Source: Ostreococcus lucimarinus | Taxonomy: Eukaryota | NCBI GenBank assembly: GCA_000092065.1 | Contig: CP000586.1 | DNA: 64,000 bases | Reading direction: 5' to 3' (one strand) | Shown here: positions 7,902-59,615 of the stretch, in pieces | Layout of the letters: every line of letters begins with the position of its first letter | How positions within the stretch are numbered: position 1 is the first letter of the stretch | Program-made: the position numbers and the translations under genes | Notes under the pieces: model-generated | The model's database searches: none | What the model saw: only the letters and a program-made list of their open reading frames with translations | Told to the model about the DNA's origin: nothing

Positions 7902-9743
7902 CTACCGCTTCTGGTGTCGCACGTTTTTCATGACCGCGTACGCCATGGCGATCCAAAACAGCCAAATTCCGAACACGGCTAAGATATTCGTGCCGAGCGA
8001 ATGCGAGACACCGTAAAAATCTGACACACCGACGGCGGTGCCGGAGTCGTCCACAAACACTTTCGGCTCTGAGTTGCGAAAATGATTTCTCATTTGCGCC
8101 ATCCAGCCGTATCGGACGAAGAGCGTGTGGCGATACCACGCCCATCCCTTCGGCATGCTCTGAACGCGAATGATGATACCGCTAAAAAGAAGTTGTACTA
8201 CGTTGTAAATTGGCAACAGCGTGTTCGCGCTGTCCATGTCGGGCGCCGCGGCGGCGCACACGTACGCCAAAGCGATGCCGCACAGCATGACGCCGTAGTT
8301 TATGATCCAAAAGTAGAAGTAACTTCCTTGAATTCCGCATCCAAGATACAGCATCATTTGCGCGATGAGCGACACTGGAATCGCCAACACGCCTTCTTCG
8401 ATTATTTTGTACGCGATGTAACTCGACAAGGGGTACACGCCGTCGTCTACCTCTCGATAGAACATCGCCCTCTCCATAACGACACTCGGCATGTAACCGG
8501 AAGCTTGAAAACTAGGCAAAATGTTCAGCATCGAAAGCAAACTTGCGACGTTTAACTGAGTCGATTGGTCTTGTGCCGCGCCGGTTGGTTCGCCAATTTT
8601 CCAGAACAACGACATCATAACGAATCCAAACAAAAAGTTGCCTGCGGAACGCGCGGCGACAAAATCGGGCGTTTTGTAATTGTATCGCGTTCGATATTTG
8701 ATGAGAGTCGCGACTTTCGACATCGCACCACGCGTGATTTTGGGTTGAGGCGGCGCCGGTAGTTGTTGTTTCGACATCATCGACTTGACGCGCGACGCGT
8801 TCGCTGCGCCGGCGGCACTTTTGGCGAACGCGCCGACGAAATCGACGTCGTCGCTCGCCACGGTGCCGACGAAAAAGTCCGCCATGCTATACGACGCATC
8901 GTAATCGTAGCCCAATCCACGGAAGTACGGCGTGACAGAATCGAGCGCTCCAGCAAACGCAACGCGCCCTTTCTTCAACATCAGCAATGAATCGAATAGC
9001 CGAAACGCCTCCGAAGTTGGAGAGTGAATGGTGGCGACGACGCAAACGCCGGAACAGGCCAAGTGCTTCAGAATTTGCACAATATCAAGCGAAGTCGCGC
9101 TGTCCAATCCACTCGTCGGTTCATCGAGGAAAAGGACGTCCGGATCCGTGACCAGCGCGAGTGCCAAGTTCGTGCGTTTCGCTTGCCCACCCGAGATGCC
9201 GCGCTTGAGCGCGTCTCCGACGATGACTTCAGAGCATTCACCCAAGTTTAAATCTTCGATGATCGCCGGCACTCGAGCCAAAATTTCCACGCGTTCTTCT
9301 TCGTTTCGTGCTCTCAATTCAGCCCAATAGTTGAGCGTCTCTTTGACCGTCAGCATTGCCAGCAGAGTGTCCCTCTGCTCGACGTACGCCGCGCACTGCC
9401 GAAACATCGCCTTTGACGCCCGTCTGCCGCCGTAGTAGACGCCGCCCCCACTCACCTCTCCCGACGTCACTCGATCGGTGATGACGTCCAGCAGCGTCGT
9501 CTTCCCAGCTCCCGACGCTCCCATCAACGCGTGCACCTTGCCGTGTTCGAACGACGCCGTGACGTTTGACAATAGGGCGAGCGGTTCCGACGACGCCTTT
9601 GCATTCGTCACCGTGTACGAAACATCGTCGACGACGACGTCGAGCGCGTGGCGCGCTTTGTTCGTGCTCAGCGAACCCACTGAAGGCACGCGTTTCATGT
9701 CCGGGACGTCGACCGCCGTCGAGGGCGTGCGCTTGAACGACAT
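7902..9743 (-). CDS. ABC transporter, G-subfamily half-transporter (NBD-TMD)
   Basis: ATG at 9743, 613 aa. It has Walker A GASGAGKTTLL, the signature ISGGQAKRTNLA and Walker B VLFLDEPTSGLD. An ABC2-type six-helix membrane domain follows. The NBD-before-TMD order is typical of ABCG/WBC. Confidence 0.9.
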   Translation of the reverse strand: MSFKRTPSTAVDVPDMKRVPSVGSLSTNKARHALDVVVDDVSYTVTNAKASSEPLALLSNVTASFEHGKVHALMGASGAGKTTLLDVITDRVTSGEVSGGGVYYGGRRASKAMFRQCAAYVEQRDTLLAMLTVKETLNYWAELRARNEEERVEILARVPAIIEDLNLGECSEVIVGDALKRGISGGQAKRTNLALALVTDPDVLFLDEPTSGLDSATSLDIVQILKHLACSGVCVVATIHSPTSEAFRLFDSLLMLKKGRVAFAGALDSVTPYFRGLGYDYDASYSMADFFVGTVASDDVDFVGAFAKSAAGAANASRVKSMMSKQQLPAPPQPKITRGAMSKVATLIKYRTRYNYKTPDFVAARSAGNFLFGFVMMSLFWKIGEPTGAAQDQSTQLNVASLLSMLNILPSFQASGYMPSVVMERAMFYREVDDGVYPLSSYIAYKIIEEGVLAIPVSLIAQMMLYLGCGIQGSYFYFWIINYGVMLCGIALAYVCAAAAPDMDSANTLLPIYNVVQLLFSGIIIRVQSMPKGWAWYRHTLFVRYGWMAQMRNHFRNSEPKVFVDDSGTAVGVSDFYGVSHSLGTNILAVFGIWLFWIAMAYAVMKNVRHQKR

Positions 9744-57215: not shown

Positions 57216-57301
57216 CTGCGTCGCGTCGCGCGTCGTCGTCGTCGTCAGTCGTCGCGTCGTCTCCGACAGAATCAGAATTCGTCACAGCGTCGCGCACGCA
57301 C
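57216..57301 (-). other. Predicted intron (86 nt, phase 0) of the TOM1-like gene
   Basis: On the minus strand: donor GTGCGT at 57301-57296, ACTGAC at 57249-57244 (29 nt before the 3' end), acceptor GACGCAG ending at 57216. Both junctions fall on codon boundaries. Confidence 0.55.
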
Positions 57302-57364
57302 GTGATCGACGATTTTGTACGCCAAGCGGTCGCTCTTATCGTTCAGGAACATCGTCTTGAGCAT
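57302..57364 (-). CDS. TOM1-like gene, predicted exon 1 (MLKTMFLNDKSDRLAYKIVDH)
   Basis: ATG at 57364 (alternative at 57352). The 21 codons end exactly at the GTGCGT donor. This exon supplies the start codon missing from the VHS exon. Confidence 0.5.
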
Positions 57365-57581
57365 CCTCGAGCGTCGACGCGCGCGCGGCGAGGACCGACG
57401 CGAATCCACGGTCGACGCGCGATCGTGTGACCGACGCCTCGGCGACCGCTGGGCACTGTGACGTTTCACATTTTTCACGTTTCGAGGCGCGGTCCCGCGC
57501 GCGCGCGGGCGCGAGAGGACGAAACGCGAGGCGCGCGCGCTGGAGAAAATATTCCGTCGCGCGGGCGCGCGCGCGGCGGCG

Positions 57582-58250
57582 ATGCGGCGCGCGGCGGCGG
57601 CGGCGGTGGCGGCGTGCGTCGCGGCGGCGGCGTTCGTCCGGTGTTCGAGGCGCGAAACGGTGGACGTCGTCGAGCGCGCGCGGGTGCCGTTCGCGTTCGG
57701 CGCGCTCGGGCCGGTGGGAACGGCGCGCGAGGGACTGCGATATTACGACGCCGCGCTCGGGGCCGCGTTGTCGTCGTCGCCGCGCGCGCAGAGCGCGCTC
57801 GAAATCGGGTGCGTGAAACCGGCGTTCGCGCGACACCTCTCTTGGATTCGCGATAAGACGTGCGTCGCACCGTATTACGCCGGGTACAAGACGACGGCGG
57901 GCGACGACTCGATCGACGCGACGGACGACGTGCGGTACGTCGTGGGGGATTTCGCCAACGCGAGCCTCGCGCCGTCGTACGATTTGTGTCTCTGCATGCA
58001 AGTCTTGGAACACTTGGATTTCGACGCCGCGAGCGATTTCGTGCGTCGCATGTTCGAGCTGTGCCGTGTGTCCGTCGTGTCGGTGCCGTACAGATGGCCG
58101 GAGTGCGGATCGACGTGCTCGCACAAGCAACACGCCATCGACGAGTCGACGCTCGCTCGATGGAGCGGCGTCGACGCGCCCGCGACGACGACCATCGTGC
58201 GCGAACGCGGCGGCGGCGCGGCGCGCGCCATCGTGGTTTACGACGCATGA
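57582..58250 (+). CDS. Putative signal-anchored class I SAM-dependent methyltransferase-like protein
   Basis: ATG at 57582, 222 aa. The N-terminus is hydrophobic (AAAAAVAACVAAAAFV). Then come SALEIGCVKPAFARHL and YDLCLCMQVLEHLDFDAASDFVRRMFEL, which is Methyltransf_11/23-like. The call is tentative. Confidence 0.5.
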   Translation: MRRAAAAAVAACVAAAAFVRCSRRETVDVVERARVPFAFGALGPVGTAREGLRYYDAALGAALSSSPRAQSALEIGCVKPAFARHLSWIRDKTCVAPYYAGYKTTAGDDSIDATDDVRYVVGDFANASLAPSYDLCLCMQVLEHLDFDAASDFVRRMFELCRVSVVSVPYRWPECGSTCSHKQHAIDESTLARWSGVDAPATTTIVRERGGGAARAIVVYDA

Positions 58251-58297
58251 GTCGCTCGAACGCGTATGTTTCTCTTTTAGTGACTACATTTTAGCGT

Positions 58298-58708
58298 TTA
58301 GGTTTGCGCCTTGGTCATGACTTGCGGCGTCGCGGCGCGCATGACTTCGGCGAGGATCGCGACGGCTTCGTCCGGGGACGACGAAGAGAAGCGAAAAGCG
58401 TCGCGCGCGGGATACTTCTTACCGAGCTCGACGTTGCGCACGTTCGTCCGTCTACCATGGATCAACCGAGAGCGCGGTGTCGTGAGTTGATGCGCGTCCG
58501 GCGTGAAGATCATTCCCGCCGACCGAACGGTGTAATCGTGAAACTTGGCCGTCTCGTCGTCGACGTGCGCCGCGAACCCGTCGTGTCCGCCGAGACAAAA
58601 GCACCACGGCTCGACTCGCGTCGCGTCGCGCCGCCGCGCGATCGATCGCTCGATCGCCCGAAGACGCGCGTCGCCGTACCGCGCGGCGCGTCGCGACGTC
58701 GCGACGCG
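58298..58708 (-). CDS. Coding-like segment with no own upstream ATG, in frame with the preceding ORF across a single TGA
   Basis: Minus-strand translation after the TGA at 58711-58709 reads RVATSRRAARYGDARLRAIERSIARRRDATRVEPWCFCLGGHDGFAAHVDDETAKFHDYTVRSAGMIFTPDAHQLTTPRSRLIHGRRTNVRNVELGKKYPARDAFRFSSSSPDEAVAILAEVMRAATPQVMTKAQT*. The composition is mixed and the third positions are strongly G/C-biased along the whole segment. The only ATG is at 58513. Family not recognised. Confidence 0.4.
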   Translation of the reverse strand, partial: RVATSRRAARYGDARLRAIERSIARRRDATRVEPWCFCLGGHDGFAAHVDDETAKFHDYTVRSAGMIFTPDAHQLTTPRSRLIHGRRTNVRNVELGKKYPARDAFRFSSSSPDEAVAILAEVMRAATPQVMTKAQT

Positions 58709-59377
58709 TCAGCGCGGGCGCGCCGCGGCCGCCGCGGCCGACGCCTTGAACGCGTCGCGAACCGCGCGACTGGTCGCGTTCACGCGGTCCCTGATCTCGC
58801 CCAAATCCTCCTCGCGCGCGAGGTCGAGATACTTTGAAAACTTGTCGGGGTGCCAGCGCACCAACTCCTCGCGAAGCCTCGCGCGCGCGTCGCCTCTCGG
58901 CGCGTCCGACGTCAGAAAATCGCGAAGCGTCGCCGCGCGCGACGTCAGGGCGTCGTCGACGAACGGGAAATCTTTCGCCCGCATCGCTCGCGCGGGCGAT
59001 TTTCGCGCGCGCGCGCGCTCCAATCTTCGCCACGCGCGTCGATACGCGTCGATCGTCGTCGCCCCGGTCGTCGCGTCCGCGTCGCCGCGCGCCCCTCTCG
59101 TCGTCCCGTTCGCGCGCGTCGTTTCGCTTTTCCGCGAATCATTGTCTCTCGCGTTTCGTCTCGACGTCGCTTCTCGTCGTCCCGCGTCGTCGCGCGCGCG
59201 TCGTCGCCTCTCGCTCGCCGCCCACACGCGCGCTCGATGCGTTTCGTCGCCCAGCGGTCCCGTCGCGCTCCACTCGCGCTCGGCGCGCGCGTACGTCGCC
59301 CACGCGTCGTCGGCGCCCGACTCGAGCGCGCGTTCGTCGCGCAACCGCGCCTCGAACGCGTCGTCGTCGAGAATCAT
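58709..59377 (-). CDS. Hypothetical protein with C-terminal J-like RWHPDKF motif
   Basis: The track ORF starts at ATG 59506, which shares a CATG with the divergent gene. The more plausible start is ATG 59377 (MILDDDAFEARLRDERALESGADDAWATYARAEREW...). The C-terminal part is FPFVDDALTSRAATLRDFLTS...RLREELVRWHPDKFSKYLDL. It ends at TGA 58709-58711. Confidence 0.5.
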   Translation of the reverse strand: MILDDDAFEARLRDERALESGADDAWATYARAEREWSATGPLGDETHRARVWAASERRRRARDDAGRREATSRRNARDNDSRKSETTRANGTTRGARGDADATTGATTIDAYRRAWRRLERARARKSPARAMRAKDFPFVDDALTSRAATLRDFLTSDAPRGDARARLREELVRWHPDKFSKYLDLAREEDLGEIRDRVNATSRAVRDAFKASAAAAAARPR

Positions 59378-59504
59378 CGCGCGCGGTCGACGGCGGCGAC
59401 GTACGCGAGCGCCGAGCGCGACGCGCGGGTCCCCGCTTACGCGTCGCGCGGTCGACGCGGTCGCGCGTCGCTCGCGTCGACCGCGCCGCACTGCGCGACG
59501 CGAC

Positions 59505-59583
59505 ATGCCGTCGGCGTCGACGTCGTCGTCGATCGACGATTCCGCGCCGCTCGCCGCGATCGCGCGCGCGATCGCGCGCGACG

Positions 59584-59615
<32 letters not shown>

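Follow-up and report, generated by a model that had tools for sequence, protein, structure and literature searches.

The TGA at positions 58709-58711 on the minus strand of our window, a 64,000-nucleotide stretch of Ostreococcus lucimarinus contig CP000586.1, is very probably a genuine stop codon, followed by a spacer and by the 3' remnant of a neighbouring gene that was truncated by a 369-nt deletion, so that the open frame running past it reflects gene decay and not recoding. The scenario we propose involves two separate genes on the same strand, of which the first, J-like, would end normally at the TGA. The likely parent allele would have resembled that of the metagenome contig L001, which bears a G5 run and in which the second gene already lies in the frame of the J-like gene. 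Loss of 369 nt in strain CCE9901 would then have taken the ATG and about 123 codons of the second gene, leaving its surviving 105 codons in frame behind the TGA, with 31 GC-rich spacer codons, none of them a stop, in between. The remnant is most likely non-functional, and would either be carried in the 3' UTR of the J-like mRNA or be untranslated. Coordinates of all features are collected in Table 1.

Table 1. Features of the J-like locus and its flanks (window coordinates).
Feature	Coordinates	Strand	Evidence
J-like gene CDS, 222 aa from ATG 59377 (in-frame ATG 59506 would give 265 aa)	58712..59377	-	ORF; environmental haplotypes and orthologues
TGA, genuine stop of the J-like gene as judged by comparison	58709..58711	-	Invariant in L001-L005; ends of orthologues
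92-nt GC-rich spacer: J-like 3' flank plus former 5' flank of the downstream gene	58617..58708	-	Matches L001-L005
Surviving copy of the imperfect ~45-nt direct repeat, CTTCGGGCGATCGAGCGATCGATCGCGCGGCGGCGCGACGCGACGCGA	58616..58663	-	Two copies in L001
3' remnant, 105 codons (VEPWCFCLGGHDGF...VMTKAQT), of the 5'-truncated gene	58301..58615	-	Homology; coding GC pattern
TAA of the truncated downstream gene	58298..58300	-	Intact alleles close with the same stop
Internal ATG, sole possible ATG start of a 71-aa ORF (58298-58513)	58511..58513	-	ORF list
Convergent neighbour, 222 aa, weak methyltransferase-like matches	57582..58250	+	Syntenic in all related contigs

The J-like gene ends at a conserved stop

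The initial annotation had described two coding-looking segments joined in frame by a single TGA, and had proposed that orthologues be aligned to see what is conserved at that position. Re-reading of the sequence confirmed the coordinate of the stop, which the J-like ORF reaches with the C-terminal end ...AAAAAARPR (...DAFKASAAAAAARPR). A homology search with the 222-aa protein as query found this form called in about 25 environmental haplotypes (90-98% identity), along with more distant homologues at 41-69% identity. When aligned, all 13 J-like homologues (eight of them at 41-48% identity) terminate 0 to 9 residues from the window's stop, shortly after a conserved motif, ...RVNA.S.AVR(D/E)(A/C)F(K/R). 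None of the 13 shows an extension past the stop, and there is no Cys or Sec column at the UGA. The TGA is also invariant in an alignment of five closely related metagenome contigs (L001-L005). At the level of sequence comparison, these alignments show the TGA to be the genuine, conserved stop of the J-like gene.

The same data bear on whether a nonsense mutation at 58709 recently broke up an ancestral single fusion gene. The in-frame arrangement would fit such an event, yet we give it a negligible probability: the TGA is present in every haplotype and orthologues end there, the J-like gene of other species abuts the methyltransferase gene with nothing between them, and outside lucimarinus the nearest homologue of the downstream gene is found at a different locus, by a YchF GTPase gene. 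The initial annotation had listed "a recently inactivated gene or fusion" among its possible explanations. Its first half survives, in the form of gene decay by a 5'-truncating deletion, but the lesion hits the downstream neighbour and is not a nonsense codon within a J-protein fusion.

The name J-like deserves some caution. The J domain is a four-helix domain with an HPD tripeptide between helices II and III. The protein shares with J-domain (DnaJ/Hsp40) proteins the HPD within RWHPDKF, found near its C-terminus after a helix-like LREELVR. A profile match is absent, however: there was no Pfam DnaJ match at E <= 1, and hhalign of the family profile against the J domain of E. coli DnaJ gave a probability of 0.35%, that is, no match, so that the label derives from the tripeptide alone. 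The family as a whole, despite its invariant RWHPDKF, has no Pfam or NCBIfam match, and its profile finds no PDB sequence match at E <= 1. We also observed that the homologues of other species (322-384 aa; L009 and L010) are extended at the N-terminus by some 100-150 aa (...GDA..LR.AF...GRT...), a stretch that tblastn does not find anywhere in the window. The O. lucimarinus gene (58712-59506) therefore appears, from its predicted ORF, to be shorter at the N-terminus than its homologues in other species.

An open frame that is only partly unusual

Past the TGA, the same frame comprises 136 sense codons (58708-58301) before the TAA at 58300-58298; its sole ATG (58513-58511) comes after 65 codons, and 47 nt separate the TAA from the end of the convergent gene (58250). 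All of these measurements from the initial annotation were confirmed, and so was its statement that local intron grammar does not account for the junction, since a motif scan of 58708-58513 found zero CAG, CTGAC or ACTGAC. An intron removing the TGA, or supplying a missing first exon, was rejected on the lack of CAG/CTGAC in 58513-58708 and because distant homologues of the downstream gene are contiguous ORFs.

The continuation had also been credited with an unbroken G/C bias at third codon positions. GC3 is indeed 0.79 over the 136 codons, but this value has two different causes and does not reflect one coding stretch. The first 31 codons after the TGA, which comprise the spacer and the deletion junction and read RVATS...RRRDATR in the J-like frame, are 78% GC, with GC1/2/3 of 0.77/0.74/0.84, and no frame stands out among them. 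The last 105 codons before the TAA, with GC1/2/3 of 0.62/0.50/0.78, display a true coding pattern.

How surprising is it, then, to find no stop in the spacer? The window has a GC content of 59.7%, rising locally to 70-78%, and given this GC-rich composition it is no surprise that the spacer stays open in frame: no stop interrupts any of the three frames in the 93 nt that follow the TGA, and about 70% of shuffled versions likewise lack an in-frame stop. Across the six frames of the window, stop-to-stop intervals of at least 136 codons make up about 6% of the total. That the neighbouring gene should be in frame with the J-like ORF is roughly a 1-in-3 coincidence. The open frame is thus only partly unusual.

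In sister haplotypes the downstream segment belongs to a separate gene

The 136-aa segment matches three protein clusters (P0001, P0002 and P0003) at 88-98% identity over its own C-terminal ~100-120 residues; for the 105-codon remnant taken by itself, identity to the C-termini of the three is 91-98%. Each cluster has a different N-terminus, and tblastn with these N-terminal halves has no match in the rest of the window. The metagenome contigs that encode the clusters, L001-L005, are syntenic with the window (97-99% DNA identity), with a shared gene order of SHPRH helicase, PAB-like, J-like, second gene, convergent methyltransferase-like, VHS/GAT, APC3 and proteasome subunit. The spacer of the window shows only single-base differences from the stretch that precedes the next gene's ATG in these contigs. 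After the TGA and this spacer they continue with ATGGCGATC... (also given as ATGGCGATCGCGTAC... and ATGGCGATCGCGTACTTC...), the start of a separate gene. Counted from the T of the TGA, its ATG comes 95 nt later, and hence in a frame that differs from that of the J-like ORF. The ORF opened by this ATG is intact in L003 (228 aa) and gives 164 aa in L004/L005, while the J-like frame past the TGA meets stops in L003-L005. The DNA of the remnant is 99% conserved among haplotypes. This comparison shows that the downstream part belongs, in sister haplotypes, to a separate gene with a predicted ATG of its own.

A 369-nt deletion between direct repeats

Starting from the TGA, GAGCCGTGG is reached after 99 nt in the window, but after 468 nt in L001/L002 and 467 nt in L003; the window is therefore without 369 nt relative to the former and 368 nt relative to the latter, and the missing segment holds the ATG and about 123 codons of the second gene. 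In L001 this segment is flanked by imperfect direct repeats of ~45 nt, the left copy starting from about 7811 (CTTCGGGCGATCGATCGATCGATCGCGCGGCGGCGCGACGCGACGCGA) and the right one from about 8181 (CTTCAGTGGCGAGCGATCGATCTCGAGCGGCTGAGCGACGCGCGGCGA). In the window the left copy is directly followed by GTCGAGCC (GTCGAGCCGTGG), which in L001 is found after the right copy. Since the window thus combines the left copy with the flank of the right one, the junction must lie in the shared GCGA microhomology at 58619-58616. These alignments define the deletion and the repeats on either side of it. It may have occurred between the repeats through replication slippage or unequal recombination.

The polarity of the event is given by two distant homologues of the second gene, P0070 and P0072, both contiguous ORFs that include the region absent from the window; it is therefore the window that carries a deletion and not the other contigs that carry an insertion. 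As for a gene truncated by deletion, the extra 368-369 nt of L001-L003 are ancestral by comparison with P0070 and P0072, and both the junction and the repeats are in place.

Within the surviving repeat, at 58648-58656 on the minus strand, a T-to-G difference sets the window (GATCGAGCGATC) apart from all other haplotypes (GATCGATCGATC), and the G of GATCGAGCGATC agrees with the right-hand repeat copy, GGCGAGCGATCGATC. Instead of a simple SNP, this difference may be a mosaic or the scar of a template switch, and because of it the exact path of the deletion is ambiguous.

A second deletion allele, of 375 nt and involving the same repeats, is present without gaps in three environmental scaffolds (L017, L020 and L021). 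Its junction is at the proximal GCGATCGATC|TCGAG (L017:1354-1430, equivalent to window ~58616-58666). The existence of two distinct deletions, of 369 and 375 nt, between the same repeats means that repeat-mediated deletion happened at least twice. Exact-match scans of JGI metagenome contigs returned no match for the CCE9901 junction, nor for the 375-nt-deletion junction. The 369-nt junction comes so far only from CCE9901 and could have arisen in culture.

The junction is reproduced by independent reads

A sequencing or assembly error had been put forward as one explanation for the TGA. It does not stand, as independent CCE9901 reads assemble to the same junction: a Logan contig from an MNase-seq run on O. 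lucimarinus CCE9901 (L007, SRR847307; bioRxiv 10.1101/2025.04.21.649811) is 100% identical to window 57231-58740, which also identifies the window as this strain. A second Logan contig (L006, SRR1179203) is 100% identical to window 57231-59612. The junction is real and reproducible from independent reads, and not an assembly artefact.

Such an error would be a collapsed repeat or a missing segment that falsely joins two genes. The missing segment does sit between direct repeats, and N-gaps at precisely this interval in several metagenome scaffolds indicate a region that is hard to assemble. Nevertheless we hold this explanation to be highly improbable: L006 and L007 come from other read sets and are identical to the reference across the junction; imperfect repeats of only ~45 nt would not make Sanger or k141 assemblies lose 370 nt by collapse; and the 375-nt deletion between the same repeats is found gap-free in the three environmental scaffolds. 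As a separate observation, L006 and L007, although obtained from different runs, both begin exactly at window position 57231.

A small family and its ancestral frame

An exhaustive HMMER search showed that the second gene belongs to a tiny family, with P0070 (257 aa, 60% identity) and P0072 (213 aa, 46%) as distant members. Over its 105 residues the remnant shows 64% identity with P0070 (residues 153-257) and 37% with P0072. Intact members share a core, C..L..P.V.C ... E.R..TE.R.Y ... LSDARR..P.CFC.GG.DG, followed by a C-terminal FR.S..SP...A...E.M.A..P.VMT. The window holds a remnant and not an intact member: only the C-terminal 105 residues are present, and the gene's own ATG is absent. The family is small and uncharacterised, and its matches so far come only from contigs resembling Ostreococcus and relatives.

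The ancestral frame of the middle of the gene, CGF..LPC..MCC..EERVVLTERRAYR..LSDARR.PWCFC.GGHDGF in P0070/P0072, is the frame of the L001/L002 allele, with its G5 run. As 468 nt is a multiple of three, the ancestral frame is in this allele also that of the J-like gene, and no stop interrupts it from the TGA onwards. Deleting 369 nt from a G5 allele keeps the frame, and the in-frame juxtaposition seen in the window is thereby explained without recoding.

The HMM search on the 136-aa segment that the initial annotation had suggested found nothing significant in Pfam/NCBIfam, and the same was true of the 71-aa ORF, P0070, P0072 and P0065. The family profile has no PDB sequence match at E <= 10, and an AlphaFold2 model of P0070, built on a 5-sequence alignment, is unusable (mean pLDDT 33.6). 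A PH- or GRAM-like fold is our guess. Assignment to MsrB/SelR was considered and rejected: NCBIfam scores were 12-17 bits (E 0.003-0.16) against cut-offs of 179-330, Pfam gave nothing, and hhalign against a hand-entered E. coli MsrB sequence returned a probability of 0.18%.

Readthrough, selenocysteine and a short gene

UGA followed by C is a relatively leaky context, and UGA-CUAG is a context that promotes readthrough. Here the TGA is followed by CGCGTC and not by the latter, and a trivial level of basal leakiness at this UGA-C may occur, to judge from the sequence.

Programmed readthrough or selenocysteine insertion at the TGA, either of which would produce a J-like fusion of ~358 aa, is a different matter, and we regard it as very improbable. 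The 136 open codons and the UGA-C stop would both suit recoding, as would the use of Sec by O. lucimarinus, for which 29 selenoprotein genes have been reported (PMC2375036). Against it, the orthologues end here, without a Cys/Sec column or an extension; the second gene occupies another frame in L003-L005, where the J-like frame meets stops; and the first 31 codons to be translated would be non-coding spacer without any codon-position pattern. There is no SECIS match at E <= 10 either: the initial annotation had seen no SECIS-like element, and an Rfam scan at that threshold over 57500-59600, on both strands, likewise lists no SECIS family, nor any other family meaningfully. Re-reading of the flanks bore out a further claim, that no redox motif surrounds the TGA. 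The option of readthrough or selenocysteine left by the initial annotation is thus contradicted by the orthologue ends, by the separate ATG in another frame and by the lack of a SECIS-like element.

We find it unlikely that the deletion is real and the remnant nonetheless still works as a short gene, with translation beginning either at ATG 58513 (71 aa) or at a non-AUG codon. The initial annotation had offered a short independent gene starting at 58513, and the 71-aa ORF is indeed intact; the conservation of the remnant DNA among haplotypes, and the location of part of the family's most conserved residues in the C-terminal third, also speak in its favour. Yet the Met at 58513 corresponds to an internal position (GMLFSP in P0070, GEFTKP in P0072) and is no conserved start, the invariant core is upstream of 58513 or deleted, and there is no promoter space, given that the remnant comes directly after the stop of another gene and a spacer. 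Polymorphisms in the remnant are nonsynonymous in five of six cases, too few for power. Across haplotypes, nonsynonymous to synonymous counts were 5:1 in the remnant, 15:5 in the J-like gene, 4:2 in the methyltransferase-like gene and 6:1 in the VHS/GAT gene, numbers too few and too similar to speak of relaxed constraint. The preferred reading, a remnant left by truncation, leads us to attribute its preserved coding signature to the deletion being recent.

A structurally polymorphic locus

Every lucimarinus-like haplotype departs from the ancestral architecture at the second gene. With a G5 run the upstream ATG falls out of frame, and calls of 181 or 189 aa start from internal Mets, in dozens of contigs. 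In G4 alleles a 228-aa ORF is restored, with ~75 residues outside the ancestral frame; P0042, of this type, is found on 49 contigs. The G5/G4 homopolymer difference (L001:~8150-8160 vs L003) lies in the segment absent from the window, and both forms are common in metagenomes. L004/L005 carry a large internal deletion in the second gene, and further variants of 88, 117 and 232 aa were found. Six of the ten scaffolds with the 71-aa ORF (L014-L016, L018, L019 and L022) have runs of N exactly in the interval equivalent to 58520-58708, which suggests that co-occurring structural alleles break assemblies there. Taken together, the haplotype sequences point to a locus that is structurally polymorphic and probably decaying.

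The genomic setting is also particular. In other species the J-like and methyltransferase genes are immediate convergent neighbours, 31-74 nt apart (L009:2426-2501; L010:5155-5187), and P0070, which among homologues outside lucimarinus is closest to the truncated gene, is at another locus, beside a YchF GTPase gene (L012:4001-4774). It follows that the second gene holds this position only in the lucimarinus-like clade, and this distribution implies that it would have been relocated or duplicated in one lineage.

Wild O. lucimarinus-like populations contain no fewer than five structural alleles: the 228-aa G4 allele, the 181/189-aa G5 allele, the 164-aa allele with an internal deletion, the 375-nt deletion and the 369-nt deletion of CCE9901. 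One could imagine a maintained hotspot of structural polymorphism, in which repeat deletions and a G-run toggle switch the N-terminal half under balancing selection, by viruses for example, although we consider this unlikely.

Discussion

The sequence feature that drew attention to this locus is real and has an ordinary cause. It calls for caution in GC-rich, compact genomes like that of Ostreococcus: stop-free spacers are common in them, and as a consequence a neighbour truncated by a deletion can imitate a readthrough or selenocysteine extension. Where near-identical wild haplotypes are available, comparing them settles such cases quickly. The reference annotation of CCE9901 is likely to have a problem here, with a gene remnant that lacks a start codon. 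The locus also documents, on a small scale, how repeat-mediated deletions recur and alleles decay in a narrowly distributed gene of natural picoalgal populations.

Compared with known systems, the locus resembles eukaryotic selenoprotein genes (PMC2375036) in that open sequence with a coding look continues in frame past a TGA, and in that the organism decodes UGA as Sec. Unlike them, it has no SECIS and no Cys/Sec column, its orthologues stop, and a separate gene lies downstream. With programmed readthrough extensions it has in common a UGA-C stop and a long in-frame open extension. Here, however, the extension is nowhere conserved, is out of frame in sister haplotypes and opens with 31 spacer codons; in relatives the extension is not coding, given the frame of L003-L005 and the fact that other species have no gene after the stop. 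The closest likeness is to a unitary pseudogene produced by deletion between short repeats: the start codon and the N-terminal half have been lost relative to intact alleles of the same species, and the breakpoints fall in imperfect direct repeats with 4-nt microhomology. Two traits set it apart from a plain unitary pseudogene, namely that several other lesion alleles are found at the locus in wild populations, and that the remnant lies in frame with an upstream stop and so mimics a readthrough extension.
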